Source: Eledone cirrhosa (taxonomy: Eukaryota). Taken from it: a stretch of 64,000 nt of DNA. The translations under genes were made by a program, and so were the position numbers. The stretch is from NCBI GenBank assembly GCA_964016885.1, contig OZ024742.1, positions 67,084,001-67,148,000 on the forward strand, written 5' to 3'. Of this stretch, positions 1,288-54,949 are shown one piece after another. The notes below the pieces were generated by a model, which saw nothing but the letters and a program-made list of their open reading frames with translations, searched no databases and was not told the origin of the DNA. The first letter of the stretch is position 1; each line of letters begins with the position of its first letter.

Positions 1288-1318
<31 letters not shown>

Positions 1319-4412: not shown

Positions 4413-5417
4413 TATAACCTACAATCTCACTTGGAGCTTACTGTCCAGAGCTAACTCTTACACGGGAGGACGCCGTCCGTGTAACTTATGCTCGGAGGAA
4501 ACATTATAAATTCTGTTTTCGAAAGACCAACTCCTAAACAAGAAAGACGAACTGGTAACTGCATGCAAACACAGATTGCGTAGGACTTACCTTGCCCTCA
4601 AACCCCACAATGACACATCCTTCTTGCCGATTTTGTAAGGGGTAACCGCTGCTTACAAAGGTAGATGTAACTTGTATTCCTCTGTAGCCTAGTACCCCCA
4701 GCCCCCTAATGTTAAGATATAAGTAGCCGATTACGCTTTTTATAGCAGATGTCTTAGACCCCAGTAAATTGTTTTCTTTCTGGTTGCTGCTCCATTTCTG
4801 TAATTTATAAATTTCTAAGAGGTATTTTTGTATTAGTATTCTTGTATTAGTATTTCTGTATTACTATTCTGAATTAATATTTCGTATTAGTATTTTTGTA
4901 GTAGTATTCTAGTATTTTTGTTTTCAACTTATTAACCTGTCATTGTAAGATAGCATTGGCTGATTACTACTAACTATAGCAGTGGTCTTAAACCCCCTGT
5001 AAAGCCGGCTTTATAAAATTCTTTCACTACAATCTCGTATTTAGTATTTTTCTCCACCTATTACATTTTTCTATAGCTTAGCAATACCATTGAGAGATTT
5101 GGTGATTGTGGAAATAGAATAGCAACCAGAAATTGTTTTTTATATATTTATTTCCTTATTTTTATAATGTTTTTATTTGTATACTCCCTTTCGATTTAAC
5201 TATTCTCCAGTACACTTTTTTCTACTTCTATACACTATCCTTAGAATCTGCTGTATAGATTTCACTTTCAACGCTTGACTGGGTTTCCCCCACTTCCTCT
5301 TTGTTCTACCGGTAAGTTCAGCTACCCATACCTCCCACCATGATAGAATCATCTGTCTTTACAACAAATTGCTGACCAATCCTTTTGACAATTACTATCT
5401 TCCCATATAAGGAATTA

Positions 5418-5496
5418 CCCCTGAGAAGTTCGGCTATCTATTTACCAGCCTAAAAATCCTCATGTAGTCCAGAAATAGCTGTCGAAACAGCTTGAG
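5418..5496 (+). ncRNA. HHR-like motif at the PLE-2 terminus (inverted copy at 1346-1413, -)
   Basis: CTGAGAA-G(TT)CGGCTA...TAGC(C/T)GTC-GAAA-CAGCTT-GAG. CTC/GAG stem I in the 1346-1413 copy. Core has A at G8. Confidence 0.4.
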
Positions 5497-5583
5497 CTCT
5501 GCCGTCGGGGTCATACTTGTCCCTATATATATATATATTTTAGTCTTCAAATTTATTATTATTACTATTATTATTATTATTAT

Positions 5584-14317: not shown

Positions 14318-16661
14318 TCACAGAGTCTCATGAGCTGTTAGCCCAACTTTACAATGAAATAGTTAAGGAGCCAGAAAAGATACCATCATGGCTAGTTAAC
14401 GGCATTACATTCCTGCTTCCGAAGAATGATGAGACAAACAATCCCCAAAATTACAGACCGATAACTTGCTTGACCACAATGTATAAAATGTTAACATCAG
14501 CCCTAACTGAATACACATATGACCACCTGATAACAAATGACCTATTTCCCATTGAGCAGAAAGGGTGTAAACGAGGCTCATATGGCTGTAAGGATCAGCT
14601 TCTGGTTAACAAAATGATACTGGAAGATTGTCATAATAGACACAAAAATCTATCGATTGCTTGGATAGATTATAAAAAAGCATTCGATAGTTTGCCACAC
14701 AGTTGGATTGAAAAATGTTTAGAGATTTTCAAAATATCCCCCGTTGTCGGGAGGTTTTTGTCATTCAGTATGAAAACATGGAAAACGACACTCCTTTTGA
14801 ATAGTGAAACAAAATCACTGGAAGCTGGAGAAGTTAATATTAATTGTGGAATTTTTCAGGGTGACTCTTTATCACCGCTTTTATTCTGCATCGCACTTAT
14901 ACCATTAAGTAAAATGCTCAATGAAACAAAACATGGATATAAAGTCTATGACAAAACCATTAAACACTTGTTCTACATGGATGACCTGAAACTATTTGCA
15001 AAAAATGATGAACAGTTGCAAGGGCTATTATCCACTGTGGAGCAGTTCAGTGATGACATTAAAATGGAGTTTGGACTAGACAAATGCGCCAAAGCAACGT
15101 TCACCAAAGGAAAGCTGCTGAAGAGTTCTTGATCGGAGGAACGTGATAAGAGAACTTGATCAAGAAAAAACTTACAAATATCTAGGTGTTTGTGAAGGAG
15201 ACGGAATCAAGCACTCGACAATGAGGGAAAGGATAAGGAAGGAATGTTACCGCAGAGTAAGAGCAATCTTAAGAACGGAATTGAATGCAAGGAATAGGAT
15301 CGATGCCATAAACACGCTTGCCATACCAGTAGTAACCTACAGTTACAATGTCATCAACTGGTCAAGCACAGAGATCCGTAGGCTCGATACAAAAATTCGA
15401 AAACTCTTAACCATGCACAGAATGCATCACCCTAAGGCAGATATAGATAGAATATATCTCCCGAGGAAAGAAGGAGGACGTGGGTTAATCCAGTTAGACA
15501 TTGCGTTGAAAACTGCAACAATTAGATTATCTACATATCTAAGGGAATCACATGATTGGATGATCAAACTCGTTTTGAAACACGAAAGCATCAAAAGATC
15601 ATATTCCAAAATATTACAAAAGATGCACAAATATACAGTAATGGACTACAAATTTCAGAAGTCCCATTTACTGCTGAAATGGAAAACACAGAAAAAGCAA
15701 AGCAGGTAAAAGTAACTGCAAAGAAAGAAATGCTACAGAAACTGGCTAAGAAATGGCAAGAAAAGCCTCTGTATGGAAAATACCCAGAGCGAGCTAACAA
15801 TCCTGATGTTGAAAAAACTTTAACCCATCAGTGTTTGGCATCCTCTGGACTGAAATCGGAGACTGAAGGACTGATTATATCAGCCCAAGATCAGTGTCTG
15901 CCAACAAAAAATTACCAAGCCAACATAATATAAAATGGATGCAGCCCATTATGCCGTGTATGTAAAAAACAGAAAGAGACCATTGACCATATAATTTCAA
16001 TGTGCAGTCCTATAGCTCCAACCGAATACCTAAACAGGCATGACAGAGCTGCACAATACATACATTGGATAATGTGTAAGCATTTTGACCTGCCCCATCA
16101 AAAGAATTGGTGGGAGCATCAACCACCTCCCATACTTGAAAAAGATCGCATCTCAATCTTGTGGAACTTTAGCATCCAAACAGACCGATAAATAGATGCA
16201 AATAGACCTGATATAATATTGAATGACATCAAAAAGAGGGTATGCCTGCTAATTGATATGTCTGTTCCAATAGACAAGAATGTATCTATAAAAACATTTG
16301 AAAAATTGAGCAAGTATAAGGACCTGGAGATAGAAATTGGAAAAATGTGGAAATTGAGAACTAAAACAATACCAGTGGTTGTAGGCCCTCTGGAAATGAT
16401 ACCTAAGGGGTCTAATGATTACTTATCGCAAATCCCAGGAAACCCGCGTATAGGAGAAATACAAAAGATAGTACTAATGGGAACTGCCCATATACTAAGA
16501 AAGATTCTGTCAATATAAGTACATCACAAGTCTAAACACTAAAGATGCATGTGTGAGTATGTATGTTCTTTCTTGAACATGGCGGACCTTGTTGTCTCTT
16601 GAGGTCACTGGTTGTGACTTGGTGATAACTCGTATGAACATAAAGCAAGATAAATGCAACT

Positions 16662-16662
<1 letters not shown>
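14318..16662 (+). mobile_element. R4/Dong LINE family A, 5'-truncated and disrupted
   Basis: [56 protein letters not shown] (CRVC..ETIDHIISMC), RLE (RHD, RPD, IDMSVP, EKLSKY). (TAA)n on both sides. Confidence 0.93.
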
Positions 16663-16729: not shown

Positions 16730-17345
16730 CTGTGGCTCACGTTGTATCCGAGTGTAAACACCTAGCCCAGACTCACTATAGGGGCTGGAACATGATGTGA
16801 TGGGCAGGGTGATCCACTGGCACCTATGCAAAGTAAACAATTTACCACATTCTGAGAAGTGGTATGAGCATAAGCCAGAGGCGGTGATAGAAAACGATCA
16901 GGTGAAGGTGCTGTGGGATTTTAGGATACAGACGGACAAGAAACTGGAACACAATAGACTTGACCTGGTGGTTGTGGACAAAGAAAAAAGATCGTGCCTG
17001 ATTGTGGATGTGGCCTGCCCATTCGACACGAGAGTGCAAGAGGGGGAGAGGGAGAAAATTAACCGATACCAGGACTTAAAGTGGGAGGTAAAAAGGATTT
17101 GGAACTGCCATGAGTCAAAGTGGTCCCGATTGTCATAGGCGCACTAGGTACTATCTCAACAAGTTTCTAGGGATGGTTAAAGAAAATTGGCCCCTTCACG
17201 CTTTTTGGAACGCTTCAAAAGGCATGCTTGCTGGGAACAGCAAGAACCCTCCGAAAAGTCCTCAATATCTGAGGCTGCAGGTAGTGGCTTGATATTCATT
17301 TCAACAAACTTTCCAGTTAACTAACATCAATGACTGAGACTTAAA

Positions 17346-17346
<1 letters not shown>
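16716..17346 (+). mobile_element. R4/Dong LINE family B, 3' fragment
   Basis: RLE region (HDVMGRVIHW, LWDFRIQTDK, IVDVACP, EKINRY) plus family-B 3' UTR, then (TAA)n. Confidence 0.9.
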
Positions 17347-17396
<50 letters not shown>

Positions 17397-17656
17397 TTTC
17401 TTTATTAACCACAAGGGTTTACATAAAGTAGACATTAAGGACAGTGCAGGACAATGCAGGACGGTACAAATGGGCATTTCTGCGTGTAAAAAACAAAAAC
17501 AGAGGATGTAACAAAAATAACAATGAAAATAACAATGAAAAATTCCCCAATAGGGGGGGAGACTTCGGAGGGACATTTGTGGAGAAAGCCCAGTAAAAAG
17601 CCACAATGACCCTGACCACCAAGGCAAGTGCCCTCTCCCAGTTTTCCACCTTTAAT

Positions 17657-20600
17657 TTACAGATATATACTCAGAGTAGGCCCATTCACTCGGGCCATTC
17701 TTGCTTCTCTCACCCATCTTTCAACAAAATGCTGGGAAGAGAGCACTTCCCTCTCTACTCTGATTTTCCTTTTCAAATGAAATTTGAAAAAGTCAATCAG
17801 AGCATCACCGAAGAGGTAAGTGCTCGTCTTCAGCCCTTTCAAACGTGTCCACCATACTATCTCTTTCGCCATGGCCACCAGACAGATAAAAACTGCCTGC
17901 CCTTCCCGGCTAAAGGAGGAGGGCGGGGCAATCCTCACGATAGACTCAGATGATAGCTGGATCCGTCCTAAACGCGACAGCAGGTGTTCGACATAAACCC
18001 ACAAGTCAGCAATTTTCGGACACTGGACGAGTGCGTGCAGGACGGTTTCGTCGCCCTGCGCGCATCTCGGACATGCCCGGCTGACGGCACCTCCATGCCT
18101 GTAGAGTTTATCCCGAACTGGCAAGGCTCCTCGGTAGCACTGCCAGGCCAGAGATTTCTGGAAGTTGTCCATAGGCCCTGGCCCGAAAGTTCTTCCGAAG
18201 AGATTGGCTAGTTGATTTTCGTCGACGCCTAGAGTTTCCCCAAGTACGTCGTCGCTCTTCCCCTCCACTAATCCTCTATAGAACGCCGAGGTGGAGTTTC
18301 CACCGATCACATTGCCCGATTGGTCGAGGGCTGTGAGCGCCTGAAGACATTCCAGTCTCCAGGCGCTCCCTCTCGGTCTTCGCTTGACCCAGGACTGCAG
18401 CTCCGTCAAGGAAACGAGCTGGGGAAAAACGCGTCTAGCAAACGGCGACCACACCTGATCACCGTCGAGGAAGAGGTGGAGATGTCGTAGCCTGAGCGCG
18501 TGCCTGCGCATCATCAGCCACGGCATGCCCAGCCCTCCACGTAGCGGGTGTTGACAACAGATGGACCGCCTGACCATCGGAGCACGTCCCTTCCACAAAA
18601 AGCGAAAGAGCAAACGCTCCAGCGCAGTCAGGCGAGGCTTAGGACAAGGTACGACGGTTAGGCGGTAGCAGATGACAGACGCGATGTACGCGTTAGCCAC
18701 CTCCGCTCGACCTTTCAGGGATAGCTTCCTCTCCGCCCATTTCTGGGTGAGAGAAGCCACCCTGCTCGTCACCTCGTCCCAGTTTTTGTCCGTCTGGAGG
18801 TCCGGACCGAACCAGACCCCTAGCAATTTAACCGGTCCGTCCGTCCAGCGCCCGACGACGCTGTTGGACGGCATGGACCTGCCTCTCCAGGTGCCGAGCT
18901 GCAGGCCCACTGACTTTTCCTGGTTGATCATTGCTCCTGTCACCGCTTCGTATTCTCTTAGTGTAGTGCCGATCGCCTCGATGTGTTTGGCGTTCGACAC
19001 CACTACGGTGACATCGTCCGCATATGCTGACACGGATCTTCCGCATCCTAGTTCGCGCGGGACTCCCCTCAACGTCTCCAGTTTGTGCAGTAATGGCTCG
19101 AGAGTCAATACGTACAAGAGGGACGAGAGGGGACATCCTTGGCGGACCGAGCGCATGATGTTGAACGGTTCCGACAGGTGACCGTTCACTCTCACCACAG
19201 AGCAGATGTCGCTGTGCATGGCAGCGATCCAGCCTCTGAAGACGGGCCCAAAGCCAGCCGCCCTCAGGACTGCCGCTAGGTAACGATGGTCGACCCTATC
19301 GAAAGCTTTCGACTGATCTAAATTGATCAAGGACCCACCCGTGCCAGGTTCCCTAGCTACCCTCTCTACGATGTATCGCATGAGGTGGAGGTTGTCGTGG
19401 ATGGATCTGTCGGGAATGGCGCATGTCTGCGCCTCTCCCACCAGACCACCAACGACAAGCGCCAACCTCTTTGCTAGCACCTTGGCCAAAATCTTAAACT
19501 CTGTGTTTAGCAGAGTTATGGGCCGGAAATTGTCTATGTTATCCCCCTTGTTCGGATCCTTTCTCAGCAGTGCCACCGCTCCTCGGCTCACAGAACTGGG
19601 AATTCTCCCGTTCTGTTGCCAGTTGCAGTAGACGTCCGCCAAGAGGCCTCCAAACAAGTCTGGCATCTGTACGTAAAGTTCATAGGGCAGACCATCCAAA
19701 CCAGGCGATTTACCCCTTGTGCAGCCAGTCATTGCCTCCCGTACTTCAGCGGCTGTTATCGGCTTTTCGCAACACCTGGCCTCAGTGGCCGAGAGCCGCG
19801 GCAGCCCGTCGAGGTAGACACTAAAGTCCATCCCTCTACCCGGCCCCCCGCTGCCCCCGAACAGCTGAGCGAAGTGTCGCTGAAAAGCTTCACACATTTG
19901 CCCGGGATCGAGTAGCATGCGCCCGTCGTGGTCCACCAAAGACCGGATCGTGGCTTTGTTGCCACGACGCGCCTCCGCCACTCGGGCCCATTGAACGGCT
20001 TTCGTCCCCTCGTGTTTGAGAGCACGCACCCTAGCTCTGACAACGCAGCCTTCGTGCTTTGCATTGAAGAATTGGTCAAGGGCCAATTTCGCCGCAAGCA
20101 CGTCGGTCGCAATGCCTTTGCTAAGCGCCTCGTCTAATTTTCTAACTAGTTCTCCCTCTGCTCTATTTTTCTCTATTGCTAAAGCCTTACTAAACCTAAT
20201 CGATTCTATTCTAATCGCTCTTTTCAGAGCAAACCACCACTTGTTGTTGACGATGGCCCCCGTCAACGCCCGCTTAACTAGTTCGCTAATCCGGTCTCTG
20301 TAGGCCTTGCGCGCTGGTAAGGACGCGTTTAGCTTCCAGTAGCCGGGTCCTCGTCTATGAAGCCTATCTAAGTCAAGCACACAGGTCACGAATTTGTGGT
20401 CCGTGTAGCTGACTATCTTGAATTGTGGACAGCCTATGCTAGACCTATCTATTTCTCTACAAAATACTCTATCTAGATATGATCTGGATGACCCTATGCG
20501 GTTTGTCCAAGTCCACATTGGCACATTCGGGAAATCCAATCGGTACCTGTCAGACAGTTCAAAACGCCTGAGCAGGTTGGTGAGGCTCTTGCACCCTCCA

Positions 20601-21076
20601 CCCCTATCCGCTAATCCCACACAGTCCCAGCGTGCATCTAAGATCCCGTTCCAGTCGCCCACTAACACTAAAGAGCGGGACGTTCCAAGAAAGGTCTCCA
20701 GACGCCGGAAGAAATCAGGCCGCCCTGCTCCTGTCGGGGCATAGACGGCCACTAGCCTGAAAGATTGCCCGTCTCCGCTGGTCACGTCCAGCACCACCAG
20801 CTTACCCTCTGGGTCCAGGAAGATGGCCCGTATGGCGAGATCCAAACCTCTCCGAAAAAGTACAGCAACTCCTCCACCGGATCCAGGACGGCTGGGAGAT
20901 GCGTACACATCGTAGCCGCCGAAGATCGGTGCGAAGGCCCGTGCTTCGGAGATTCTGGTCTCGCTGATGGCCACTACATCTATGTTTAGTGACCTGAGGT
21001 CGTTGAGCAGGTGACCCTGCTTCCATGACGACCCCAAGCCACGCGCATTTATGCTGCCTATTCTGAGTGAGGTCAT
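17657..21076 (-). CDS. Tx1 ORF2: APE endonuclease + reverse transcriptase + C-terminal zinc finger (1139 aa)
   Basis: SINARGL, ISETR, VYAP, GDWNG, SYLDRVF, YTDH; SPGLDG, FRPITLLN, DQSKAFDRVDH, RQGCPLS, AYADD; CPRC..ETVLHALVQC. Confidence 0.95.
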   Translation of the reverse strand: MTSLRIGSINARGLGSSWKQGHLLNDLRSLNIDVVAISETRISEARAFAPIFGGYDVYASPSRPGSGGGVAVLFRRGLDLAIRAIFLDPEGKLVVLDVTSGDGQSFRLVAVYAPTGAGRPDFFRRLETFLGTSRSLVLVGDWNGILDARWDCVGLADRGGGCKSLTNLLRRFELSDRYRLDFPNVPMWTWTNRIGSSRSYLDRVFCREIDRSSIGCPQFKIVSYTDHKFVTCVLDLDRLHRRGPGYWKLNASLPARKAYRDRISELVKRALTGAIVNNKWWFALKRAIRIESIRFSKALAIEKNRAEGELVRKLDEALSKGIATDVLAAKLALDQFFNAKHEGCVVRARVRALKHEGTKAVQWARVAEARRGNKATIRSLVDHDGRMLLDPGQMCEAFQRHFAQLFGGSGGPGRGMDFSVYLDGLPRLSATEARCCEKPITAAEVREAMTGCTRGKSPGLDGLPYELYVQMPDLFGGLLADVYCNWQQNGRIPSSVSRGAVALLRKDPNKGDNIDNFRPITLLNTEFKILAKVLAKRLALVVGGLVGEAQTCAIPDRSIHDNLHLMRYIVERVAREPGTGGSLINLDQSKAFDRVDHRYLAAVLRAAGFGPVFRGWIAAMHSDICSVVRVNGHLSEPFNIMRSVRQGCPLSSLLYVLTLEPLLHKLETLRGVPRELGCGRSVSAYADDVTVVVSNAKHIEAIGTTLREYEAVTGAMINQEKSVGLQLGTWRGRSMPSNSVVGRWTDGPVKLLGVWFGPDLQTDKNWDEVTSRVASLTQKWAERKLSLKGRAEVANAYIASVICYRLTVVPCPKPRLTALERLLFRFLWKGRAPMVRRSICCQHPLRGGLGMPWLMMRRHALRLRHLHLFLDGDQVWSPFARRVFPQLVSLTELQSWVKRRPRGSAWRLECLQALTALDQSGNVIGGNSTSAFYRGLVEGKSDDVLGETLGVDENQLANLFGRTFGPGPMDNFQKSLAWQCYRGALPVRDKLYRHGGAVSRACPRCAQGDETVLHALVQCPKIADLWVYVEHLLSRLGRIQLSSESIVRIAPPSSFSREGQAVFICLVAMAKEIVWWTRLKGLKTSTYLFGDALIDFFKFHLKRKIRVEREVLSSQHFVERWVREARMARVNGPTLSIYL

Positions 21077-21111
21077 GTTTAAAATAGAGTGGAAAAGATG
21101 GGAAAGACCAC

Positions 21112-23202
21112 TTACCGTATTTTTGGTAGAGGAGGGATGGTTTTTACATCCCTTTTCACTTGATCGTCTGGTGAAGGGACCGTTGAATCGTCCCTTCGGC
21201 TGGTCGTCGGCTCTTCTAAGAGAATGTCTGAATATACTCTTCGATTAATGGTTCCTCCTAGGTCCCTGAAATCACCAACTGCGTTGGGGAATTTCGTTTT
21301 AATGTTTGTGTATTGTTTCTGTGCTATTTTTAGCAGTCTTATGTTAGTTGGCGTTTTGATTGGTGCTGGTATTATGTAGTCCTGTTGTGAAATGTCTGTG
21401 TGTTCAATTATGTAAGTCATTAGTTTCTTGTTGTGTGTGTTTATTGCCGTGCATTTGTTTTTCTGGGGGTGGGGTGTGGTTCTGCTATTTTCTTGTCGTT
21501 GTTGCTGGGTGTGTGTGTTTTGTTGTTGTGTTTGCGATGTTGGTGCTTGTGGTGTTGAAGGTGTTGTTGGCGGTGGGGTTGTCGCCGGTGGTGATGGTGG
21601 TGCTGGTGTGGGTGGTGATGGTGTTGGTGGTGTTGCTGCTGTGGGTCTCTTTGCAGTAGACTTTACCCTTTTCTCATTTCTTTCCTCCCTTTTCAAAGGC
21701 GACGATGCGCTGCTTCTGCGTTTGTGCCTTCTTGAGACCTTTTGCCATCCCTCTCCCACCTCACACTCCATGTCTGATTCTGTAAGGTCGGGGAGGGGTA
21801 CCAGCTCCACTCTTTCACTTGTTGTTGTTGGTGATGTTTGCACTGGAGTCTCTGTTGCAGCTGCATTTGGTATTGCTGTTGTTGTTGTTAATATTTCCAC
21901 TGCTGCTGCTGTCTTTGATTTCCGTGGAGTGGGTATGGGTGCCACGGACCTATCGTTCCTGGTTGCCGCTTGTCCTGTTGCTGGTAGCCGTGGAACCGGA
22001 TTCGGGAGGAGGGGGGTTTTCTCCTTTCTCAGGGTCTTCTCATTGCAGAAGGCCCTGAGGTGAGTCTTCGATCCACAGCGAAAGCATTTCGGGCGTTTGC
22101 CCTCAACACTTATGGGCAGTTGAGTGCCGTTATCGAAGTCTATCACATCCGGGATAGCTTCGATGCACTCCTGGTTGGTTTGGATTAGCATCTCAATGGA
22201 GGAGCCGACCCAATCTTCTCTTACTTTTTTCTGTACTTGCAGTACAGTTGTTTTGTCCTCGATTCCGACGAGGACAGACGCGGCCAGCCAAGAAGGGGTC
22301 ATTCCGGGGGGGACGTGGGTCAGTTTGACCCTCACAATTTTTTGCCCGCAGTAGGAGGGCACCAACACCATTTCCTCGCTCCTTAGGGTCACTACTGATT
22401 GGGCCTTTGCCTCCTGGGGTGTGGCAAAAAGTACGTCTACGGTGGCGTATTTTTTGCCTCGGGTGATGTGCGTTTTCCTCTGCCACACAGACCCCAAGGC
22501 TTTTTGTATTTGGGCCTCTGTGGCTCTTTCCACCCTACGGGATTTTGTACTTACTGTACGGTACGTGACCGTACAGTGCTCTTGGGTTTCGAAAAAATTT
22601 TTCGCTGCCTTGCAGATTGCTCGGTGTCCGTTCTTTGTCACCATCTTCTTCGCTTCCTCTAATTCCTCATTTGTTATGAGGATTGTTTCCAGGTTTTTCG
22701 CAATACCTGCAAATGAGATTGGTTTTTCTCTGCTGTTGTTGTTGTCGTCAGAGCTGCTGGTACTTTTGTTGTTGCTGCAGGTACTACGACTACTGCCTCC
22801 GCCGCTGTTGCTGTGGTTGTTGTTGGTGTTGCTGCTGCTAATGCTGTTGTTGTTTATGCTGCTGGTGATGCTGTTGCGGCTGCTACTGTTGTTTTCATTG
22901 TCACTGTTGCTGTTGTTATTACGGCTGCTACTGCTATTATTCCTGACGTCAGACGAATGAACTGGGTTTTCGTATTTCCCGCACACCTGTTTCGTCGCTG
23001 TCGTCGTCGTCGTGGAGAAACCTTGCACGCTTTGCACGAGACTTTTCTTTTCTTTCGTCGCTTGCGAAAGAGAAGGGAGGGAGAGAGACACATTTAAAGA
23101 AGGGAGGGAGAGAGACAATCTTCTCTCTGCTGTAGTGATGATTGAGGAAGAAGAAGACGGAATGAGTGGGAGTGACGTATGAAATTTCTTTTTGGTAGCC
23201 AT
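21112..23202 (-). CDS. Tx1 ORF1 nucleic-acid-binding protein with CCHC zinc knuckle
   Basis: Open frame (track start 23235 is TTG; first ATG MATKKK at 23202). CFRCGSKTHLRAFC = CX2CX4HX4C; N/S-rich and P/T-rich low-complexity regions; WQKV basic motif. Confidence 0.85.
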   Translation of the reverse strand: MATKKKFHTSLPLIPSSSSSIITTAERRLSLSLPSLNVSLSLPSLSQATKEKKSLVQSVQGFSTTTTTATKQVCGKYENPVHSSDVRNNSSSSRNNNSNSDNENNSSSRNSITSSINNNSISSSNTNNNHSNSGGGSSRSTCSNNKSTSSSDDNNNSREKPISFAGIAKNLETILITNEELEEAKKMVTKNGHRAICKAAKNFFETQEHCTVTYRTVSTKSRRVERATEAQIQKALGSVWQRKTHITRGKKYATVDVLFATPQEAKAQSVVTLRSEEMVLVPSYCGQKIVRVKLTHVPPGMTPSWLAASVLVGIEDKTTVLQVQKKVREDWVGSSIEMLIQTNQECIEAIPDVIDFDNGTQLPISVEGKRPKCFRCGSKTHLRAFCNEKTLRKEKTPLLPNPVPRLPATGQAATRNDRSVAPIPTPRKSKTAAAVEILTTTTAIPNAAATETPVQTSPTTTSERVELVPLPDLTESDMECEVGEGWQKVSRRHKRRSSASSPLKREERNEKRVKSTAKRPTAATPPTPSPPTPAPPSPPATTPPPTTPSTPQAPTSQTQQQNTHTQQQRQENSRTTPHPQKNKCTAINTHNKKLMTYIIEHTDISQQDYIIPAPIKTPTNIRLLKIAQKQYTNIKTKFPNAVGDFRDLGGTINRRVYSDILLEEPTTSRRDDSTVPSPDDQVKRDVKTIPPLPKIR

Positions 23203-23415
23203 GTTTTTTTGTTTAAAATGAAATTTTGGGTACAAAACCCCAATAACTGGTTATTTAACCCCGAAGGGCCAAATAACGGACAGAAAGACCCCTCTCACGA
23301 GGAGGAGGGTGTCTTTATCAACAATTTGGTTCAAGTTTTAAACAATTTACAATTGTTTTAACGGTTAAAAATTACTATACCTTACAGAGCCGAGCCTCCG
23401 TCAACCATGGCATTC

Positions 23416-23457
<42 letters not shown>

Positions 23458-25525
23458 CAATTGACGGAATCAAGGGTAATGATGTTACCAACTATAGACC
23501 TATCACATGTCTGTCCGTAATGTGGAAACTGTTGACAAGCATTATGTCTGAGGAAATCTACCATCACCTCCAGACAAACAACTTGTTACCGGACGAACAG
23601 AAATGATGCCGAATGAAGTCCCGTGGTACAAAGGACCAGTTACTTATTGATAAGATGGTAATGAGGAATTGCAAGAGGAGACACACTGGTCTTGCCATGG
23701 GATGGATAGACTACAACAAGGCATTTGACATGGTGCCTCATTCTTGGATCACCAAAAGCCTAGAGATCTTCAAGGTGGCAGATAACATCAGACAGTTGTT
23801 GGGCAAAAGTATGAAGTCCTGGAAAACAGAGTTAACATCAGCTGGAGAATCCTTGGGAAGCGTGAAGATCAAGAGAGGTATCTTCCAGGGAGATAGTCTG
23901 TCCCCTTTGTTGGTAGACCATGCCCTGATGCCCCTGACCATTATACTGCGAAAAGTGAGAGCAGGATACTAGTTGGGAAAGGGAGAGCTTACCATCAATC
24001 ACCTACTCTTCATGGACGATCTTAAGCTCTTCGGGAAGAGTGAGAAGGAGTTGGATGTATTTGTTGAAACTGTCCGTATTTTCAGCAATGATATATGTAT
24101 GCAATTTGGTATTAGTAAGTGTGGAGTCCTTGTGATGAAGAGGGGTAAATTGAGCAGAAGCAACGAAATCCAGGTACCAACAGGTGAGATGATAAAGGAA
24201 ATTGACACTGAAGAAGGATACAAGTATTTGGGTGTTCTGGAGGCTGATGACATCAAGAACAAAAAAATGAAGGAATTGATAAGATCTGAATACATTCGGA
24301 GAGTAAGGAGCGTATTAAAGTCACACCAGAACAGTAGGAATGCCATAAGTGCAGTAAATTCCCGAGCTGTGTCTATTATTAGGTACAGTGCGGAAATTCT
24401 GAGATGGAATGTTGCTGAACAAAAAGAAATGGATATGAAAACTAGGAAGCTATTCACTATCTACAACATGTTCCAAAAGTGGAGTGATGTCGATAGACTC
24501 TACTTAAGGAGATCTGAAGGTGGAAGAGGTCTTATCAGCATAGAGGACTGTGTTCAGATGGAGAAAAACAACCTATACAAATACGTGACCTATAGTAAGG
24601 AGCCAATGCTCAGAACTGTACTGAAGGAGGGGACAGTAGGCCAGGGGATGTCCAAGGAGGAAATAACATCAAGGAGGAAGAGCAGCCTTAAGGGAAAATC
24701 CCTTCATAGTACCTTCTTTGTGAAAACTGAATTCAGAGATCCACAGACATGGAACTGGTTGAAAAGAGGAGACCTTAAAAAGGCTACAGAAGGAATGCCA
24801 ATGGCTGCGCAAGAGCAGGCCCTCAAAACGAAGTGGTTGAAACACCATATTTACAAGGAGGAGGCTAGCCCACTGTTCAGGATCTGTGGAGAGAGAGAGG
24901 AGTATGTGGCTCACATTGTATCCGAGTGTAAACACCTAGCCCAGACTCATTATAAGCGCTGGAGACATGATGTGATGGGCAGGGTGACATACAGGCACCT
25001 ATGCAAAGTAAACAATTTACCACATTCTCAGAAGTGGGATGAGCATAATCCAGAGTCGGTGATAGAAAACGATCGGGTGAAGGTGCTGTGGGATTTTAGG
25101 ATACAGACGGACAATAAACTGGAACACAATAGATCTGACCTGGTTGTTTTGGACAAGGAAAAAAGATCGTGCCTGATTGTGGATGTGGCCTGCCCATTCG
25201 ACACGAGAGTGCAAGAGAAGGAGAAGGAGAAAATTAACCGATACCAGGACTTAAAGTGGGAGATAAACAGGATTTGGAACTGCCATGAAGTCAAAGTGGT
25301 CTCGATTGTCATAGGCGCACTAGGTACTATCTCAAAAAGTTTCCAGGGATGGTTAAAGAAAATTGGCCCCGCCATGCTTTTTGGAACGCTTCAAAAGGCA
25401 TGCTTGCTGGGAACAGCAAGAACCCTCCGATACGTCCTGAATATCTGAGGCTACAGGTAGTGGCTTGATATTCATTTCAACAAACTTTCCAGTTAACTAA
25501 CATCAATGACTGAAACTCAAAGAAC
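23458..25525 (+). mobile_element. R4/Dong family B, 5'-truncated, few stops
   Basis: ORFs 23613-23972 and 23973-25448: [28 protein letters not shown]; 3' UTR, then (TAA)n(GAA)n. Confidence 0.93.
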
Positions 25526-25609
<84 letters not shown>

Positions 25610-25630
25610 AAGAAGAAGAATAGTAATAAT

Positions 25631-26037
25631 GGCCAATAAATTAGAACACAATAGGCCTGACCTGGTGGCTTTGGAAAAGGAAAAATGATCTTGCCTGATT
25701 GTAGATATAGCCTGCCCATTTGACACGAGAAGGAGAGGGAGAAAATTAACCGATACCAGGACTTAAAGTGGGAGGTAAAAAGGATTTGGAACTGCCATAA
25801 AATCAAGATCGTCCCGATTGTCATAGGCGCACTAGGTACTATCTGAAAGAGTCTGCAAGGATGGTTAAAGAAGATTAGTCCAGCCCCGCTTTTTGGAACA
25901 CTTCAAAAGGCATGCTTGCTGGGAACAGCAAGAACCCTCCGATACGTCCTGAATATCTGAGGCTACAGGTAGTGGCTTGATATTCATTTCAACAAACTTT
26001 CCAGTTAACTAACATCAATGACTGAGACTCAAAAAAC
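25631..26037 (+). mobile_element. R4/Dong family B short 3' fragment
   Basis: HNRPDLV..DIACP region plus 3' UTR, then (TAA)n. Confidence 0.9.
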
Positions 26038-26042
26038 AATGG

Positions 26043-26124
<82 letters not shown>

Positions 26125-29801: not shown

Positions 29802-29879
<78 letters not shown>

Positions 29880-29909
29880 AAGAAGAAGAAGAAGAATAAT
29901 AGTAATAAT

Positions 29910-30316
29910 GGCCAATAAATTAGAACACAATAGGCCTGACCTGGTGGCTTTGGAAAAGGAAAAATGATCTTGCCTGATTGTAGATATAGCCTGCCCATTT
30001 GACACGAGAAGGAGAGGGAGAAAATTAACCGATACCAGGACTTAAAGTGGGAGGTAAAAAGGATTTGGAACTGCCATAAAATCAAGATCGTCCCGATTGT
30101 CATAGGCGCACTAGGTACTATCTGAAAGAGTCTGCAAGGATGGTTAAAGAAGATTAGTCCAGCCCCGCTTTTTGGAACACTTCAAAAGGCATGCTTGCTG
30201 GGAACAGCAAGAACCCTCCGGTACGTCCTGAATATCTGAGGCTGCAGGTAGCGGCTTGATATTCATTTCAACAAACTTTCCAGTTAAATAACATGAATGA
30301 CTGAGGCACAAATAAC
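29910..30316 (+). mobile_element. R4/Dong family B short 3' fragment
   Basis: Coding part essentially identical to 25631-25941. Confidence 0.9.
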
Positions 30317-30331
30317 AATAATAATAATAAT

Positions 30332-30518
30332 TGTTTCTACTTTTGGCACAAGGCCAGCAATTATCCAATGCATTACTGGTACTTTATTCTATCGACACCG
30401 GAAGGATGAAAGGCAAAGTTAACCTCGGCGGGATTTGAACTGAGATCATACAGGGAGGTAACTCTATGCTTCAAAGCATGGCATCTGACCCTCTACCGAT
30501 ACTGCCAATCCACCGCCT
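30332..30518 (-). mobile_element. tRNA-derived SINE with Nin-type core
   Basis: A box TGGCAGTATCGG, B box AGTTCAAATCCC, core GCCGAGGTTAACTTTGCCTTTCATCCTT, tail TGGCCTTGTGCCAAAAGTAGAAACA; (ATT)n on both sides. Confidence 0.9.
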
Positions 30519-30537: not shown

Positions 30538-30729
30538 TGTTTCTACTTTTGGCACAAGGCCATCAATTATTCCAGTGCATTACTGGTACTTTATTTTATC
30601 GACCCCGTAAGGATGAAAGGCAAAGTTAACCTCGGCGGAATTTGAACTCAAACCGTAAAGGGACGTAACTATGATGGAAAGCATGGCGTCCGACTCTCTA
30701 CTGATACTTCCAATCCACCACCCACTGCC
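30538..30729 (-). mobile_element. second tandem SINE copy
   Basis: Same head, core and tail; flanked by ATT repeats. Confidence 0.9.
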
Positions 30730-30739
30730 AAATAATAAT

Positions 30740-33700
30740 GATTTTAATTATTGGTCACAAGGGCCGACATATAAGGGACAATACAAAAGACTGTGACAGT
30801 AGGGATTTACATATACAACGTGTAAACAATGATAACAATAACAAATTAACAAGAAAAATACAACAGGAAAAATTCCCCAATAGGGGCGATGACCACCCAG
30901 GGTTCACTCAGGTACCCCACCGAACCTGAACGACTCGACGCTTCGAGAGCACCCGGGAAGGGCACCCCTCCTCAAATTTAGCCACCTACAGGCGCATAAT
31001 CAGAATTGGCCCACTCAGACGGTCCAATCTCGCCACATTCACCCACCTTTCAGCAAATGTACTGGGGGGCAGCACTTCTCTCTCCACCCTCACCTTCCTT
31101 TCCAAGTGAAACTTCAAAAAGTTGATGAGGAATTGGCCGTAGAGAAAAGAATCTGTCTTCAGTCCTTTCAACATAGTCCACCATACAACCTCTTTCGCTA
31201 CTGCCACCAGACACAGGAAAAATGCCTGCTCTTCCTGGACAAAAGAAGGCGGCGGGCCGACCTTCACTATGGACTCGGCCAATAGCAGGATCCGTTATAC
31301 ACGCGACAACAGCTGTTCGACATAACTCCACAAGTCAGTAATGCACTGACACTGGATGAGTGCGTGCAGAACGGATTCGTCGCTCTGCTCTTGAGCAGGT
31401 CATTCTGACAGCACTTCCGTGCGTGTAGAGTTTATCTCGAACCGGTAGTGCACCCCGGTATCACTGCCAAGCGAGGAATTTTTAGAAATTACCCATCGTC
31501 CCCGGCTCAAAAGTCCTCCGAAAGAGACTGCTTAGTTCGACTTCGTCGATGCCCGGAGCGTCTCCGAGTGCGTGTTCGCACTTGCTCACCACTAGTCCTC
31601 TATAGAAGACGAGAGTGGAAGTTCCACTGACCGCATTGCCCGCCTGGTAGAAGGCAGTGAGTGCTTGCAACATTCCAGATACCAGTCACCCAGTTTCTGT
31701 CTGTTCTTGACCCAGGACTGCAGCTCAGTCAATGAGACGAGCTGCGGAAAGGCCTGTCTGACAAACGGCGACCACACTTGTTCACCGTTTAGGCAGAATA
31801 TCTGGAGTTGCCGCAGCCTCAGGGCGTGTTTGCGCATCATTACCACGGCATGCCCAGCCTTCCGCCTAGAGGGTTCTGGCAGCATATGGACTGCCTCCCC
31901 AACGGAACCTGATACCTCCACAAGAATTTGAAGTTGAGCCGTTCCAAGTTGGCGAGGCGCAAACGGGGACAAGGGACGACGGTCAGGAGGTAGTAGATGA
32001 CGGACGCGATGTATGCGTTCGGTACCTCCGCCTGAGCTTTCAGTGATAGCTTCCTCGCAGTCCATTTCTGGGTGAGACTGGCTACCCAGCCCGTCACCCC
32101 GTCCCTATCATCATCCACCTGGCCCTAACCAAACCCCGATCTACTTTACCGGTCCGTCCATTCAGCGCCCAACGACGCTGTTGGATTGGCATGGACTAGC
32201 CTCTCCATGTGCCGATATGCAAGCCCACCGACTTTTCTGGGTTAAGTTTTTTTCCCGTGAATCTTTCATATTCCTCCAATAAGTAGCCGACCACCTCGAT
32301 TTCTGAGGTGTCCGACACCATCACGGTGATGTGGTCTGCATAAGCCGACACGGCCTTTCTGCTTCCTGGCTTGAACGTGATGCCCTGCAACAGCTCCATC
32401 TTCCGCAGTAAAGGCTCGAAAGTCAATACGTTCAGAAGGGAGGAGAAAGGGTACCCTTGACGGACCGATCGGGAGATCTGAAACGGTTCCGAGAGGTGGA
32501 AATTAACTTTGACCACCGAGCACATGCGGCTGTGCATTGCACTGATCAAGCTTCTGAAGACTGGGCCGAAGCCAGCTGCCTTGAGGACAGCTTCCAGGTA
32601 CCGATGGTCGACCCTATAGAATGCTTTCGATTGATCTAAATTGATAAAAGCCCCACGGAAGCCAGGTTTACACCCTACTCTCTTTATGATGTACCACATG
32701 AGTTGTAGGTTGTCGTGTATGGACCTGGTTGGTATTGCTTAAGTTTGCACCTCTCTAACCAAAACCTCTACATGTGCCCACCTCTTCGCTAGCACCTTGG
32801 CCAAAATCTTAAACTCTTTGTTGAGCAGAGTTATGGGCCCGAAATTGTCTAATGTGTCCCTCTTTTTCTCGTATTTCCTTATCAGCGTCACTACGCCCCG
32901 GCTAACAGAACTGGGAATACTACTGTTCTGCTGCCAGTTGCAGTAGAGCGCTTCGACGAGATCGGAGAACAAGTCTGGCATATTTACGTAAAGCTCGCAG
33001 GGCAGACCATCCAAACCGGGGGACTTGCGCCTAATGCAGCCGACAAGGCCATCCTGAATCTCGAATGAAGTAATCGACCTTTCGCAGCGCTCAGCGTCGG
33101 CCGTTGAGAGTTGCGGTAAGCCATCCAGGTAGGGACTGATTTCCGCCACCTTCTCTGACCCGCCACTTCCCCGAACAACCGGCCAAAATGTTGGCGAAAG
33201 GCTTCACACATCTGCTTGGAAGCATTCAGCTCGTGTCCGTCTCGGTCCGTCAAAGACCGAGTCGTGGTTTTATTACCACGCTGCGCCTCTGCCACGCGGG
33301 CCCATTGAACGGCTTTGGTTCCCTCGTTTCTCAGAGCACGCGCCTTAGCTCTGACAGTGCAACCTTTGTGTTTCGCATTGAAGAAATGATCTAATGCCAT
33401 TCTCGCCGCTAGCACGCCAGTTGTAATGCCACTAACAATAGCCTCGTCTAACTTATCTACCAAATCCCCCTCCTTTCTATTTTTCTCTAACGCTACTTCT
33501 TTGCTAAACTCTATTAACATTACTCTAAGCTCTCTTTTGAGAGCCCCCCACCATCTATTGTTGACGACTCCCACAGTCAACTTTTTCTTAACTAAGTTTT
33601 AAAACGTGGACAGATTACACTATTTCTGTCTATTTTCCTAACCAATATCCTGTCTATATACAATCTAGATGATCATATGCGGTTGGTCCAGGTCGACACT

Positions 33701-36562
33701 GGCTCATTAGGGAAATCTGGTCGGTACCTGTCAGAAAGTTGGAACTGGCTGATCAGGTACTTGAGGCTTTTGCCCCCCCCCCCCTCGCTCCTAACAGATA
33801 CTCCCACACAGTCCCAGCGAGCATCTAAGATGCCGTTCCAGTCCCCCGCTAGCAGTAAAGGGCGAGACGTATCCAGAAAGGCTTCGAGGCGTCTAACGAA
33901 GTTCGACCGTCCTGCCCCAGTAGAGGCGCAGACGGCCACCAGTCTAAAGGCACCACCTTCATTACTGTTCACGTTCAGGACCACCAACTTACCGTCCGGG
34001 TCCCGGTAGATCGACCTTACCTCGAAATCCAGTCCTTTCCGAAACTGCACTGCCACCCCACCTCCCATTCCCGGCCGACTAACAGATGCAAAGATCTGAT
34101 AGTCGTCGAAGATGTCGGAAATCCTAGTGCGCACGTGTCGGAAATCCTGGTTTCACTGACGGCAATTACATCCATTTCTAGAGACATTAGGTCCTTGAGC
34201 AGGGGACCATGCTTCCAGGACTATCCCAGGCCTCGAACATTTAAACTTCCTTTTTTAATACAGCCATGTTGGCAAGAGGAAAGGTTTACTTACCTTTCCG
34301 GCTCTTGTGAAGTCGGGTGGTTCGACCTCCATAGTTGGTGGGGTTTCTTTTGGGAACCCCTTTAAAAGTTTTGAAGTGGGAATATGTTCGGGTTTCCCAC
34401 GTTCCGAGGAAAGCTGTCTCGTATCTCTTTGTATAAATCGAGCGACATTCGCACCAGAAACAAATCTTTCGGCACGCGAAATGTGCTCAAGTTAAAAATG
34501 TCCCCCTCTTTTTGTATATATTAATTTCGTGCTACGAGGGCCATCAGTTTCTTGTTGGTCCTCCTGACGAGCACGAAGTTTTTTGGTTTTGTTGGTGTGA
34601 TTTTATTTATTTGCGTGGCTTGGTGGTGATGGTTTTGATGGTGCTGTTTCGGTTGTGTCTGTGTTTGTTGCGAGTGCGGTGCCTGTGGTTTCAGATGTTT
34701 GTGTGTGTATTTGTTCTTGCGTCTGTTTAGGTTGTTTGCGTTTGGGGGATTCTGGTGATGGTGATGGTGATGGTGATGGTGGTATTGTTGGGGCGATGTT
34801 TGCGTGGGCGGTGTCTGCATTTTTTATTGTGTGTGTTTTTGTGAACACAAAAAACAAAAACCTCAACGGGTTTTTTTTTTGTGTTTCCTTTTTTGTATTT
34901 TTGGGGATGTTGTTTTTCCTCCTCTTCACTACTGGTAGATGAGGGGTCTGTGTCTGTAAGCGTGTATGTGCGTGTATTTACGTTTTTTTATGTGTGTATT
35001 TGTGGGGAAGGGGATTTGCCAACTTTCCTCGTTTCCTCCCTGGGTGGTCAATGTTGGTGGTGGTCTTTCTATTGGTGTTGTTGCTGGTGGTTTTGCCGGA
35101 GCTGGTGTTGGTTCTGGTCCTCGCCCCTGCTTCGGCAGCAGTGGAGCCCTTCGACCCCTTGCATCTTTCAGCAGTTGAGGGCAGAAGGCTCGCAAAGGAA
35201 ACATTCGGCAGAAGGCTCGCAAAGGAAACATTCGGCCTCTTGCCCTCAGTCATAATTTGAATGACCGTCCCATTTTGAATGACGAATGTGGTCCGGGATT
35301 GTTTTGACATTCTCCGGCCTGATCTGGAGAAGTATCTTCAGGTCAACCCCCGACCAGTCCTCTCTGGGAGTTATTGTTACTTCTATCGGGACGGTATCTC
35401 AGAAGTCACCACATGTTAAGTCCTTGTGGGATTCTGGGAAGGCGAAGACGGGCCGTTCTTTTTCTCATGGGTACATTATGACCTTGCTGGTTTGCAAGGT
35501 GTAAAAGCATGTTTCATACCGAGGGCTTCTTACTTAAACAACACCAAAATGGTGCTGCATTGTCTGCCCCTCGCTATGTATTCGGTGTCATCCCTGGTGC
35601 ACTTCAGCGCGACCTCGACATCTGCTTGTGGAATTAAATCTGCTCTCTTGGTTTCTGCCGAGATGCATCTGTAATGCACCGTTCTGCGCTCCACTGCTAC
35701 AATAGCTTCTACCGGGACAGTTAAGGTGGCCTAGGTTTGCTCTTGCTTGATGAGCTTTCAGGCCTGGGCCAACTTTTCATCTTTGTTCGAGAGGATGCTT
35801 TTTGGCTGCTGCCGCAGTGAAAGTGTTCTTCTATTTGTCGTTGGTCATATGGTTGTTGTTGTCGTTGTTCTTGTTGGTGTTGTTGCTGTTATCACTGCCG
35901 CCGTTGTTGTTGTTTTCAGTGCAGTTGGTATTGTTGCTGTTGGTGCTGTCGCTGTTTATGTTCTGGTTAGTGGCGTTAATTTCGTTGTTGTTTTCGTTGA
36001 TATTGTTACTGCTGCCTTTGTTATTGTTGTTGTTGCTGTTGTTGTGGTTGTCACTGTTGTTGATATTGTTGTCACTGTTTCTGTTGTTGGTGTTGCTGTC
36101 ATTATTGCAGTTGTTGTTGGTTTTGTTGTCGTTGTTGCTGGTGATGTTGTCGTTCTTGTTCATGACTGTTTTTCTTTATTGTTTTTGGTAATCGCTGCTG
36201 TTGTCATTTTTGTTCTCACTGTTGTTGCCTGATGTGTTGTTACATTTTAAAATTGTTGCGGGAGGGGCAGCGTTATTAATATCAAAGTTTGACTCGCTGT
36301 CGCAAAACAGCAAAGTCAAAGTTGGGGGGGCGTGCCTCCGCCACGGTTTTTAATTTTTTTTTATAAAAATTTTCTTTTAAACATACAAAGTTTAAATATT
36401 TGGGCCAAATGGCCCAAATATTTTGGGGAGTCCTTTCTTGGGGCAAAGACTAAATTCTTATTTCCCGTTTGAAACAAATATATTAATGACAAACGTATTT
36501 CAAACCGTCGAACAAAACAAACTTACGATCTCACGATAGTACGTCCATTCACTTCAACGACC
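30740..36562 (-). mobile_element. second Tx1-clade LINE family, full span but decayed
   Basis: ORF2 pieces 30986-34267 homologous to the intact ORF2 (GDWNGILDARWDC, KSPGLDG, DQSKAF, AYADH). ORF1 pieces with N-rich tract and EGKRP-CFLC (27-bp tandem duplication). Both ends abut (ATT)n. Confidence 0.9.
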
Positions 36563-38455: not shown

Positions 38456-39847
38456 ATGATATATGTGATATCCATACTAATACAATTCCCATTTCATATC
38501 TCTTTGTTTTTGTATGTGTGTATATGTGTAGTGTTTGTGTGTGTGTGTGTGTATGTGTGTGTATGTGTGTGTGTGTGTGTGTGATTTTGTACGTATGTTT
38601 GTGTTTGTTCGTGTATGAATTTAACTATGCGTCGCTTTACTTGTGCATAGGCCTTGTATGTATGTGTCTACTTAAATTCACATAAAAAATTCGATCACAC
38701 ATCTCCTTACCTCGCCTTTTTCCATTGAACAAAAATCATTCGCGTAAACTAATCAAAATGACTCGTATTCATATCATTATTAATTGTAAAGAAGTATTCA
38801 TAAAATACATAAGTGCTGGTATAAATTCTAAAAATACATCCGCCAACCAGATGAAATCATTTTTAAAATATGAAAGAAAATTTGAATATAAAAATTTGCT
38901 AAATTTGGGAATTTTGAGAATATTAAAGAAAATAATTGAACAGAAATTTTTGGGAAAGGAAGCATAATATTGTTTCCATGAATTCTAATTCAGTATTAGT
39001 ATTCTCAAGATGATAAGTTAATAAAATAACATTTTTTTATGTTTTTAATTGTCTCTCAAGAATAATTTCCATCTTACACATAATTCTCTCTTTAAAACTA
39101 ACATGATGACCATCTACGTCATCATCATTCCTACCATCGCAATCATCTTCAGTTTCTATTCCTCATCCAGCAATATTAGCACTACTAGTACCACTACAGA
39201 TACACTAAGCATTAACTACCATTAATACTATTAATACTGCGAATTAATACCATATAACACGAAACACTATTGCCTCTAATATCTCCACAAATTGCGTCGA
39301 CCTTATTAAATGTTTCACCTGCTCATTCACCACTTTTGCCGCATTATTCTAACTAGCAGATAAACCAAACTTCCGGTTGTTTTCTGCTAGCATGTGTAGT
39401 GTGCATATTGATATTATAAACAAATATATATGCATGTATATATGATAGGTCAAATGAAATCCTAATTATCAATATGCACAGAAATTGAACGAAATCTGTG
39501 TTACACTCTCTACTGTAATCACTAAACCATGATATATTATAAAAAGACTATATTATATATATAAGCTGTATATAAAATGAACTAAAATATTATGAAAAGG
39601 AAAAAGGAAAAAATTAGTTAACGAAATAAAAACCTTATATGACGATGCAAACATATGAAGGTTTATATAAGAGATGTGCTAAGTATTATAATATAACAGA
39701 CTCTAACCGTAGTGTTGGCATTTGAAAATTTTAAAGAAGTGAATCTTGAAATAAGCAATATTTTATTTATAAGATTATTTATGTTTAAGCGAGAGCAGCG
39801 AAATTTAGTATATACATTACATAATATCCATTCATTATTTATTCAAA

Positions 39848-40036
39848 ATGGCGGTGGATTGGCAGTATCGGTAGAGGGTCGGACGCCATGCTTTGACGCA
39901 TAGATTTACGGCCCTTGCCATTCTGAGTTCAAATCCTGCCGAGGTTAGCTTTGCCTTTCATCCTAACGCAGTCGATAAAATAAAGTACCAGTAATACACT
40001 GGGAAGATTGCTGGCCTTGTGCCAAAAGTAGAAACA
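39848..40036 (+). mobile_element. SINE copy with 14-bp target-site duplication
   Basis: Same family as 30332; ATTATTTATTCAAA at 39834-39847 and 40037-40050. Confidence 0.92.
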
Positions 40037-48860: not shown

Positions 48861-49078
48861 TGGTTTCTGATTTAGGCACTCGGCCAACAATTTTGGGGCA
48901 GAGTAAAGTCGATTAAATCGACCCCAGAGCATTACTGGTACTTTATTTTATCGAGCGCATAATGATGAAAAGCAAAGCGAAAATCGGCAGGATTTAAACT
49001 GAGATCATAAATGACCGTATCTCTGGGCCATAAAGCTTGTTGTCGGACGCTACGCTGATGTTGCCAATCCACAGCCCT
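48861..49078 (-). mobile_element. older, diverged SINE copy of the same superfamily
   Basis: CATTACTGGTACTTTATTTTATCGA..GATGAAAAGCAAAG..GATTTAAACTGAG matches the SINE core. Confidence 0.75.
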
Positions 49079-54641: not shown

Positions 54642-54949
54642 GGTGGCACCAAAACAAGCACTCAATGCTGCGTAAGGTTGTATATATTAATAAGAACTAT
54701 GATATTTATTTTACATGAATTTAGATTGTTATTGTATATCGACCTGTTACGCGCGTTTCACAGTTCTTTTTAATACTTAATCTCGCTGTTATATTTGATG
54801 AAGCAAGTTTAATATCATGCAGGTTTCGTTCTGGTCATTTATTTTATTTGAAACTAGCAGAGGTACCCGGCCTTGCCCGGTATAACTCTCAATGTAGTAG
54901 TCGTTCAAATGAACCGAAAGACTTCCGTTAAACACGACTATAGAAGTAA

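Follow-up and report, generated by a model that had tools for sequence, protein, structure and literature searches.

An intact Tx1-type LINE of Eledone cirrhosa set between ATT repeats: a likely target preference and a possible SINE partner

Introduction

When a long interspersed element (LINE) has the same simple repeat at both of its ends, is that repeat its target, or its own 3′ tail beside an accident of siting? The question is raised by E1, a LINE that appears to be of Tx1 type in the cephalopod Eledone cirrhosa (contig OZ024742.1 of assembly GCA_964016885.1, forward-strand positions 67,084,001 to 67,148,000; these 64,000 nt are called the window, and coordinates count from its first letter). 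A first-pass annotation had proposed (ATT)n specificity. The reading we favour, with a probability of roughly 0.6, is that a cephalopod Tx1-type lineage has a relaxed preference for sites where the element-sense strand starts with ATTATT. There are three independent sites: E1 itself, an array formed by a second LINE (E2) and two short interspersed elements (SINEs a and b), and a lone SINE copy (SINE c). At all three, ATT occurs on the 5′ side, which points to the target because an element's own tail cannot supply its 5′ side.

E1 and its landing site

The features of E1 and of its immediate surroundings are as follows (ORF, open reading frame; UTR, untranslated region; RT, reverse transcriptase; APE, apurinic/apyrimidinic endonuclease).

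17395..23415, minus strand: E1, full-length Tx1-type (L1 group) APE LINE
23203..23415, minus: E1 5′ UTR, 213 nt, with predicted hairpins
21112..23202, minus: E1 ORF1, 696 amino acids from ATG
17657..21076, minus: E1 ORF2, 1139 amino acids from ATG
17395..17656, minus: E1 3′ UTR, 262 nt
17407..17419, minus: E1 3′ hairpin AACC-CTTGT-GGTT, ending 12 nt short of the ATT junction
17347..17394, plus: (AAT)16, 3′ flank of E1, where the 3′ tail of D1 would be
23416..23457, plus: (AAT)14, 5′ flank of E1, adjoining the truncated 5′ end of D2
16730..17346, plus: D1, 3′ fragment of a putative Dong/R4-like LINE (restriction-like endonuclease type), 94% identical to D2
23458..25525, plus: D2, 5′-truncated Dong/R4-like LINE whose RT contains two in-frame stops; (AAT)18 comes after it

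The two ORFs of E1 contain no stops and are separated by a 35-nt spacer. In ORF2, three Pfam matches lie above the curated cut-offs: Exo_endo_phos (PF03372, E 4e-14), RVT_1 (PF00078, E 1e-28) and zf-RVT (PF13966, E 7e-8). They correspond to an N-terminal APE endonuclease, an RT (with YADD) and a C-terminal CCHC zinc finger, in that order. The best PDB match of the endonuclease is that of human L1, and the catalytic positions align. Two uninterrupted ORFs with catalytic motifs, as first annotated, are therefore confirmed. ORF1 has an Asn/Ser-rich stretch, a central RNA-binding-like region, one CCHC knuckle and a Pro/Thr-rich end. It has no Pfam match at E ≤ 0.01; its Atlas look-alikes are zf-CCHC or ZCCHC3-type RNA-binding domains (0.88–0.93), a lead only. 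The type I ORF1 of the Tx1 clade is described with RRM-like and CCHC domains and not with Transposase_22 (PMC5203782; papers cited by PMC number are quoted from the excerpts of their text at hand). The assignment of E1 to the Tx1 type goes by this domain layout and ORF1 type, the 37-row RT tree described below being built without Tx1L, Kibi, Koshi or Keno references.

The 5′ end of E1 can be placed only to within 9 nt: a contig from sequencing run X5 stops at 23406, and E2 starts with GGT, as E1 does from 23406. The 5′ end of E1 may thus be 23406, with 9 extra nucleotides. These (23407–23415), between the 5′ tract and the end of the X5 contig, may be a junction addition. The 5′ regions of E1 (23203–23415) and E2 (36300–36562), otherwise unrelated, each contain several predicted hairpins, and one hairpin in each has a similar ATTTGG(G)CCC arm.

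E1 is backwards relative to D1 and D2 and lies within the (AAT)n spacer between them. Since its own tail can explain the 3′ side only, E1 would have entered a pre-existing spacer. D2 looks the older of the two because it has two stops and E1 is intact. The 5′ tract, adjoining the decayed D2, is not the tail of E1.

The neighbours are probably Dong/R4-like: they combine an RT with a restriction-like endonuclease (the C-terminal part of D2 aligns weakly with that of R2, E 0.0035), and each of the six such fragments in the window ends, read on its sense strand, in an AAT tract. The name is chosen because Dong targets (TAA)n, as described in Bombyx, Anopheles and Biomphalaria (PMC3812793), and because Dong-R4 elements are abundant in octopus (PMC13282606). 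Dong would thus have the same microsatellite target as E1, which its fragments flank; on the other hand, these neighbours have a restriction-like endonuclease and AAT on the sense strand, whereas E1 has an APE endonuclease and the opposite orientation. The two Tx1 sites both fall in tails or spacers of Dong/R4-like LINEs, a circumstance that increases the AAT density nearby and that the first-pass annotation had missed.

Upstream of D1, at 14318–16662, there is a second, different Dong/R4-like family, 5′-truncated, with an RT Pfam match, (AAT)15 before it and (TAA)10 after it; blastn gives no match between it and D1. The segments 25077–26054 and 29352–30331 form a local duplication (94% identical), each consisting of the end of a Dong element, (AAT)n(AAG)n and a short Dong piece, so that the members of the array are not all independent insertions.

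E2, the SINE copies and the choice of target

The other sites involve E2 and a SINE-like repeat of roughly 190 bp present in four copies, one of which has a target-site duplication.

30740..36562, minus: E2, decayed full-length element of a sister family; hairpin GGCC-CTTGT-GACC at 30753–30765; flanks (ATT)3 and (ATT)4
30332..30517, minus: SINE a, with (ATT)6 and (ATT)5 on its two sides, within the tail of the Dong-like fragment D5
30538..30730, minus: SINE b, between (ATT)3 and (ATT)6; hairpin TGGC-CTTGT-GCCA at 30550–30562
39850..40036, plus: SINE c, outside any microsatellite; hairpin at 40012–40024
39834..39847, plus: left 14-bp target-site duplication of SINE c, ATTATTTATTCAAA
40037..40050, plus: right 14-bp duplication, directly after the end of SINE c, with no added tail units
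48863–49076: SINE d, an older copy

E2 has the same orientation as E1. The ORF2 regions of the two are 73% identical at the DNA level. Several frame changes and stops interrupt E2, which tblastn recovers in eight pieces. The description of E2 as a second, diverged family with ATT at both ends and in the same orientation holds. Its tracts are short, three units at the 3′ end and four at the 5′ end, the latter grading into (GAT)n. The RT tree has 37 rows (one protein was dropped for short overlap), with a Dong-like outgroup whose branch is long. One of its clades (100/99) unites E1 and E2 with two Argonauta proteins and five further proteins; within it, E2 groups with other members and not with E1. 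Two families therefore show the ATT habit, since E1 and E2 are in the same clade without being each other's closest relatives.

Tracts of at least four units make up 0.7% of the window as a whole, 1.8% of the part from 14 to 37 kb and 0% of that from 37 to 64 kb. With such cover, E1 and E2 are flanked by ATT tracts more than chance would give; the rarity of these sites in the window favours ATT as target. One could nevertheless suppose that there is no preference, (ATT)n being a 3′ tail and the 5′ tracts incidental in a tolerated, AAT-rich pile-up. Both LINEs do lie in the Dong array, where the tracts are concentrated, LINEs commonly have 3′ simple-repeat tails (PMC3747384), and the site counts are those of the window and not of the genome. 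Yet insertions would have had to fall twice, separately, on about 2% of the local DNA, and SINE c does not fit: its duplication starts exactly at ATTATT, with no tail units beyond. We regard an absence of preference as improbable.

The site of SINE c is the most informative. The duplication ATTATTTATTCAAA is exact over its 14 bp and begins with ATTATT, in surroundings that are non-repetitive; a 14-bp match is reached by 1 in 4000 random position pairs, and ATTATT starts at 0.1%–0.3% of strand positions. No ATT units follow the duplication, so that at the 3′ junction it is the target that contributes the ATTATT. The site is also no microsatellite, which makes a short ATTATT motif look more apt than a strict (ATT)n specificity. 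On the best reading, the preferred sites start with ATTATT and need not be long arrays.

On the minus strand, the second site reads E2-(ATT)3-SINE b-(ATT)6-SINE a-(ATT)5-Dong end. Here, as at E1, the insertions run opposite to the Dong-like elements whose tails they occupy, and these elements belong to one family (D1 for E1, D5 for the E2–SINE array). The target could then be the 3′ end of that family, as for crocodilian Tx1-Mar, with ATT marking the place only; transposon-targeting Tx1 families are known (PMC4494074). But the distance to the Dong end varies (16 units for E1 vs. 5–7 for SINE a), two SINEs separate E2 from Dong, and SINE c has no Dong neighbour. We consider a Dong-end target very unlikely.

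A strict specificity for long microsatellites, as in Kibi and Koshi, would place the LINE nearly only in (ATT)n and leave SINE c to be moved by another LINE. Both LINE copies in the window, from two families, have repeat tracts on both sides, and strict repeat targeting is known in Tx1 relatives (PMC4494074). The tracts of E2, on the other hand, have merely three and four units, and SINE c sits in non-repetitive DNA and yet has the tail hairpin described below and the ATTATT junction. Strict specificity is in our view unlikely. The (ATT)n specificity first annotated is thus kept as a preference within the window, on the strength of the 5′ tract of E1 and the duplication of SINE c, and given up in its strict form, the site of SINE c not being a microsatellite. 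That specificity had been said to be inferred from two copies only; the LINE copies are indeed two, and the SINE with a similar tail adds a third independent site. With three sites, an ATT preference is likely and its short-motif form probable.

Several points weigh against the favoured preference for ATTATT. There are only three independent sites, one of which relies on the presumed SINE partnership, and two of which lie within the Dong array at 1.8% tract cover. All junctions scored are inside the window. The common orientation of the LINEs adds little, since all tracts of the Dong array face one way. The 9 nt between the 5′ tract and the likely start of E1 lack an explanation. SINE d, one of the four copies, has an altered loop, no ATT and no duplication. 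To these are added the weaknesses of the tail comparison, given with it below.

A common 3′ hairpin

E1, E2 and SINEs a–c all end with CCTTGTG, then 15–16 nt, then ATTATT. The pattern CCTTGTG-N8-14-AAANN-ATTATT, derived from these five copies themselves, occurs five times in the window, each time at an element end, and never in 100 shuffles. A 7-mer found in E1, in E2 and in the SINE, equally far from the end each time, arises in 42 of 20,000 shuffled SINE tails; the pairwise tests with anchored words are reached in 84, 77 and 52 of 3000 shuffles. CCTTGTG also occurs at 62338–62344, at no element end. The motif is absent from the three Dong-like ends of the window that were compared.

The CTTGT loop (CUUGU in RNA) is closed by a 4-bp stem that differs by lineage: AACC/GGTT in E1, GGCC/GACC in E2 and TGGC/GCCA in the SINE. 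RNAalifold independently selects exactly this helix. Changes on both sides occur at three of the four stem pairs, and 22 of 24 cells pair. The covariation score is reached by 2 of 500 shuffles, and controls with slid positions stay at or below 0.083 (vs. 0.533). This covariation comes from three lineages, for a hairpin picked after the data were viewed; related rows, the tool cautions, can outscore its shuffles. The pairwise similarity of the tails is weak, the local E1–SINE score being reached by 631 of 3000 shuffles. Folded singly, the six tails do no better than shuffles (z from −1.62 to +1.01), with the hairpin in the lowest-energy fold of only three of the six; folding energy of single tails, not being significant, was dropped as evidence.

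The SINE repeat has no ARAGORN or Rfam match. It may be tRNA-derived, to judge from stretches resembling Pol III boxes and a presumed likeness to Deu and Nin. That it is moved by the Tx1-type lineage is suggested by the tails, at about even odds, the octopus RTE and CR1 LINEs being outside the comparison.

Age of E1

ORF2 of E1 had been described as rich in GC and CpG against an AT-rich host, implying recent insertion. The GC richness stands (0.55 vs. 0.34). The CpG argument was rejected: the observed/expected ratio is 0.90 in ORF2 of E1, 0.92 in the host at 37–64 kb and 0.83 in the decayed ORF2 of E2, so that CpG content, equal to that of the host and near that of E2, is uninformative on age. 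The view of E1 as intact and young is upheld on other grounds. In run X5, eight of the 25 placed contigs are listed; against these pieces (one alternative piece being left out of the count), E1 differs at 36 positions in roughly 5.95 kb, an identity of 99.4%. ORF1 has two indels listed against X5, of 3 and 6 nt, both in frame. Of 206 differing places, 40 are shown; with one in the 3′ UTR dropped, 25 of the remaining 39 coding differences are synonymous, where a fraction of 0.29 is expected without selection (p 5e-6, the rows being the tool's best-supported ones). Most differences therefore arose in working lineages and not through decay. By these sequence criteria, E1 is a young, coding-intact, recently inserted copy, and activity is plausible.

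The E1 stretch is found wholly or partly in 20 of the 24 sequencing runs listed, and half or more of the sampled words in 11 of the 24, with eight coded organism labels. No RNA run is among the holders listed, which is no evidence either way. Of four runs aligned to the stretch, the two with raw reads contribute just 3 and 8 reads, partial and confined to a low-complexity patch. The contigs placed on the stretch number 47,873 in run X1 and 25 in X5. In X1, summed depth over ORF2 exceeds that over ORF1 several-fold, which is not a copy number and was not used; an excess of this kind fits 5′ truncation or ORF2s in common.

Relatives of E1

The close relatives of E1 ORF2 that have names are gene models of Octopus sinensis and proteins of Argonauta hians. 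A sister clade with about 50% RT identity (P0107, P0116 and P0128) comes from ENA assemblies, in clusters of 385–732 members. In the O. sinensis model P0035, annotated “tectonic-3-like,” the first 60 or so residues are from an E1-type LINE endonuclease (64%), likely a gene-model error. A relative of E1 ORF2 (69% over the C-terminal part; P0328 and P0363) is deposited as a Herbaspirillum protein from a metagenome-assembled genome, on a 1.8-kb contig; most likely, it is host DNA in a bacterial bin.

A possible mechanism

The favoured preference for ATTATT can be fitted to target-primed reverse transcription, after which the nicking and pairing steps below are modelled. E1, with two intact ORFs, an APE endonuclease and an RT, could insert in this way. 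The endonuclease would nick the AAT strand after AATAAT, and the freed 3′ end would pair with AUU repeats at the end of the RNA and prime the RT. Staggered cuts about 14 bp apart would leave a duplication starting with ATTATT and no added tail, as seen for the SINE and presumed for the LINE. From the covariation, the ORF2 protein would recognise the CUUGU hairpin at the 3′ end, and the tRNA-type SINE could be mobilised in trans. Endonuclease and primer–template pairing may both contribute to the choice of site. The long (AAT)n tails of Dong/R4-like LINEs would offer many sites, at which Tx1 and SINE copies could accumulate, backwards with respect to Dong.

Taken together, a Tx1 lineage that targets ATTATT or (ATT)n and recognises CUUGU may drive an octopus tRNA-type SINE as a stringent pair, reaching the microsatellite of the unrelated Dong endonuclease from the opposite strand and building Dong/SINE/Tx1 arrays that run head to tail. 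We hold this combination only tentatively, as somewhat short of an even chance.

Comparison with known systems

The targets described for Tx1 elements are (TC)n, (TTC)n, (TTCC)n/(TTTC)n, U2 genes and transposons (PMC4494074), with (TC)n for Kibi, (TTC)n for Koshi and (TTCC)n/(TTTC)n for crocodilian Tx1 (PMC4494074, PMC3812793). A family is called microsatellite-specific there when the target repeat occurs in more than 20% of its flanks (PMC4494074). Like E1, these elements are APE LINEs of the L1/Tx1 group with two ORFs, simple repeats at both ends and a fixed orientation. They differ in having C/T-only units as far as the excerpts describe them, whereas E1 has an ATT unit, a cephalopod host and evidence for a short motif. 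With (ATT)n flanks and neither (TC)n nor (TTC)n, E1 is not Kibi or Koshi proper. Further repeat targets, ATT included, may be given in Figure 3 or the supplements of PMC4494074.

In Octopus vulgaris, 13 L1-Tx1 families, accounting for 421 insertions, are reported as recently active, with 80 consensus families in all (PMC13282606); like E1, they provide young, near-full-length copies in octopus. E1 is a member of this already catalogued kind of octopus LINE and may belong to one of these families, to which it is likened by description and not by sequence. The word “target” is absent from the main text of PMC13282606.

For the SINE, a precedent is SINEU of crocodilians, assigned to Tx1-Mar through a common target (PMC4494074). 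As here, a SINE is given a Tx1 partner; in contrast, SINEU has a poly(A) tail and, in the text at hand, no LINE with the 3′ end of SINEU-1 was found, whereas E1 and the SINE have a 3′ hairpin in common. Stringent SINE/LINE pairs are known for bivalve SINEs with CR1/L2 (PMC4824008) and for one monocot L1 lineage (PMC3747384), and have, like E1 and the SINE, a conserved loop and compensatory stem changes near the 3′ end. E1, E2 and the SINE display this common 3′ stem-loop with compensatory changes, in a small sample and for a hairpin picked post hoc. Unlike in those pairs, the partner would be of Tx1 type and the common part is about 30 nt, weakly similar beyond the hairpin.

We found neither an ATT target for Tx1 nor a hairpin-sharing SINE partner in the open-access literature. 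The available portions of PMC4640811, PMC5753468, PMC4758252, PMC3747384, PMC8967140, PMC11203168, PMC5786205 and PMC10294476 mention no ATT target of Tx1 and no Tx1 partner of an octopus SINE; in those of PMC3747384, Tx1 is named five times and never in the table of SINE/LINE pairs. Nor did we find, in the open-access literature, a statement of which LINE moves the octopus SINEs of Deu/CORE type. The hairpin-sharing SINE is a more original lead than the ATT preference. SINEs make up 11.6% and LINEs 12.9% of the O. vulgaris genome, together about a quarter (PMC13282606). If the proposal is right, a candidate engine for octopus SINEs is named and their clustering at AAT tracts explained; an A/T-rich unit joins the Tx1 microsatellite targets, otherwise all C/T-only in the excerpts at hand; and an intact enzyme is available for separating endonuclease choice, primer pairing and hairpin recognition. 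If it fails, E1 is an ordinary young L1-Tx1 copy, like several hundred others.

Wider scans and other features of the window

No locus related to E1 occurs in the genome or viral contigs scanned; 80 metagenome loci are related to it only distantly, the best long match being at 31%. Stretches with the tail pattern in prokaryote genomes (94) were set aside as chance, the loci examined matching neither ORF2 nor the SINE, and the SINE motifs have no match in the scans of related loci outside the window. A profile of the SINE frame gave two matches, both to unrelated repeat proteins. N-terminal extensions are present in 27 of 324 homologous proteins, none with the I/L/Y runs of the flank; by eye, such runs are also absent from 29 shorter homologues.

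Two other regions of the window may be noted. At 1304–5538, inverted terminal repeats of about 880 bp (87% identical) between (AT)n tracts enclose broken frames without Pfam match, which we take to resemble a Penelope-type RT and a GIY-YIG nuclease; this is possibly a Penelope-like element inserting into (AT)n. At 55686–56261, a fragment of a Pif1 helicase (PF21530) lies among tandem repeats of 95 and 69 bp (54946–56752), and the region is probably a Helitron remnant.

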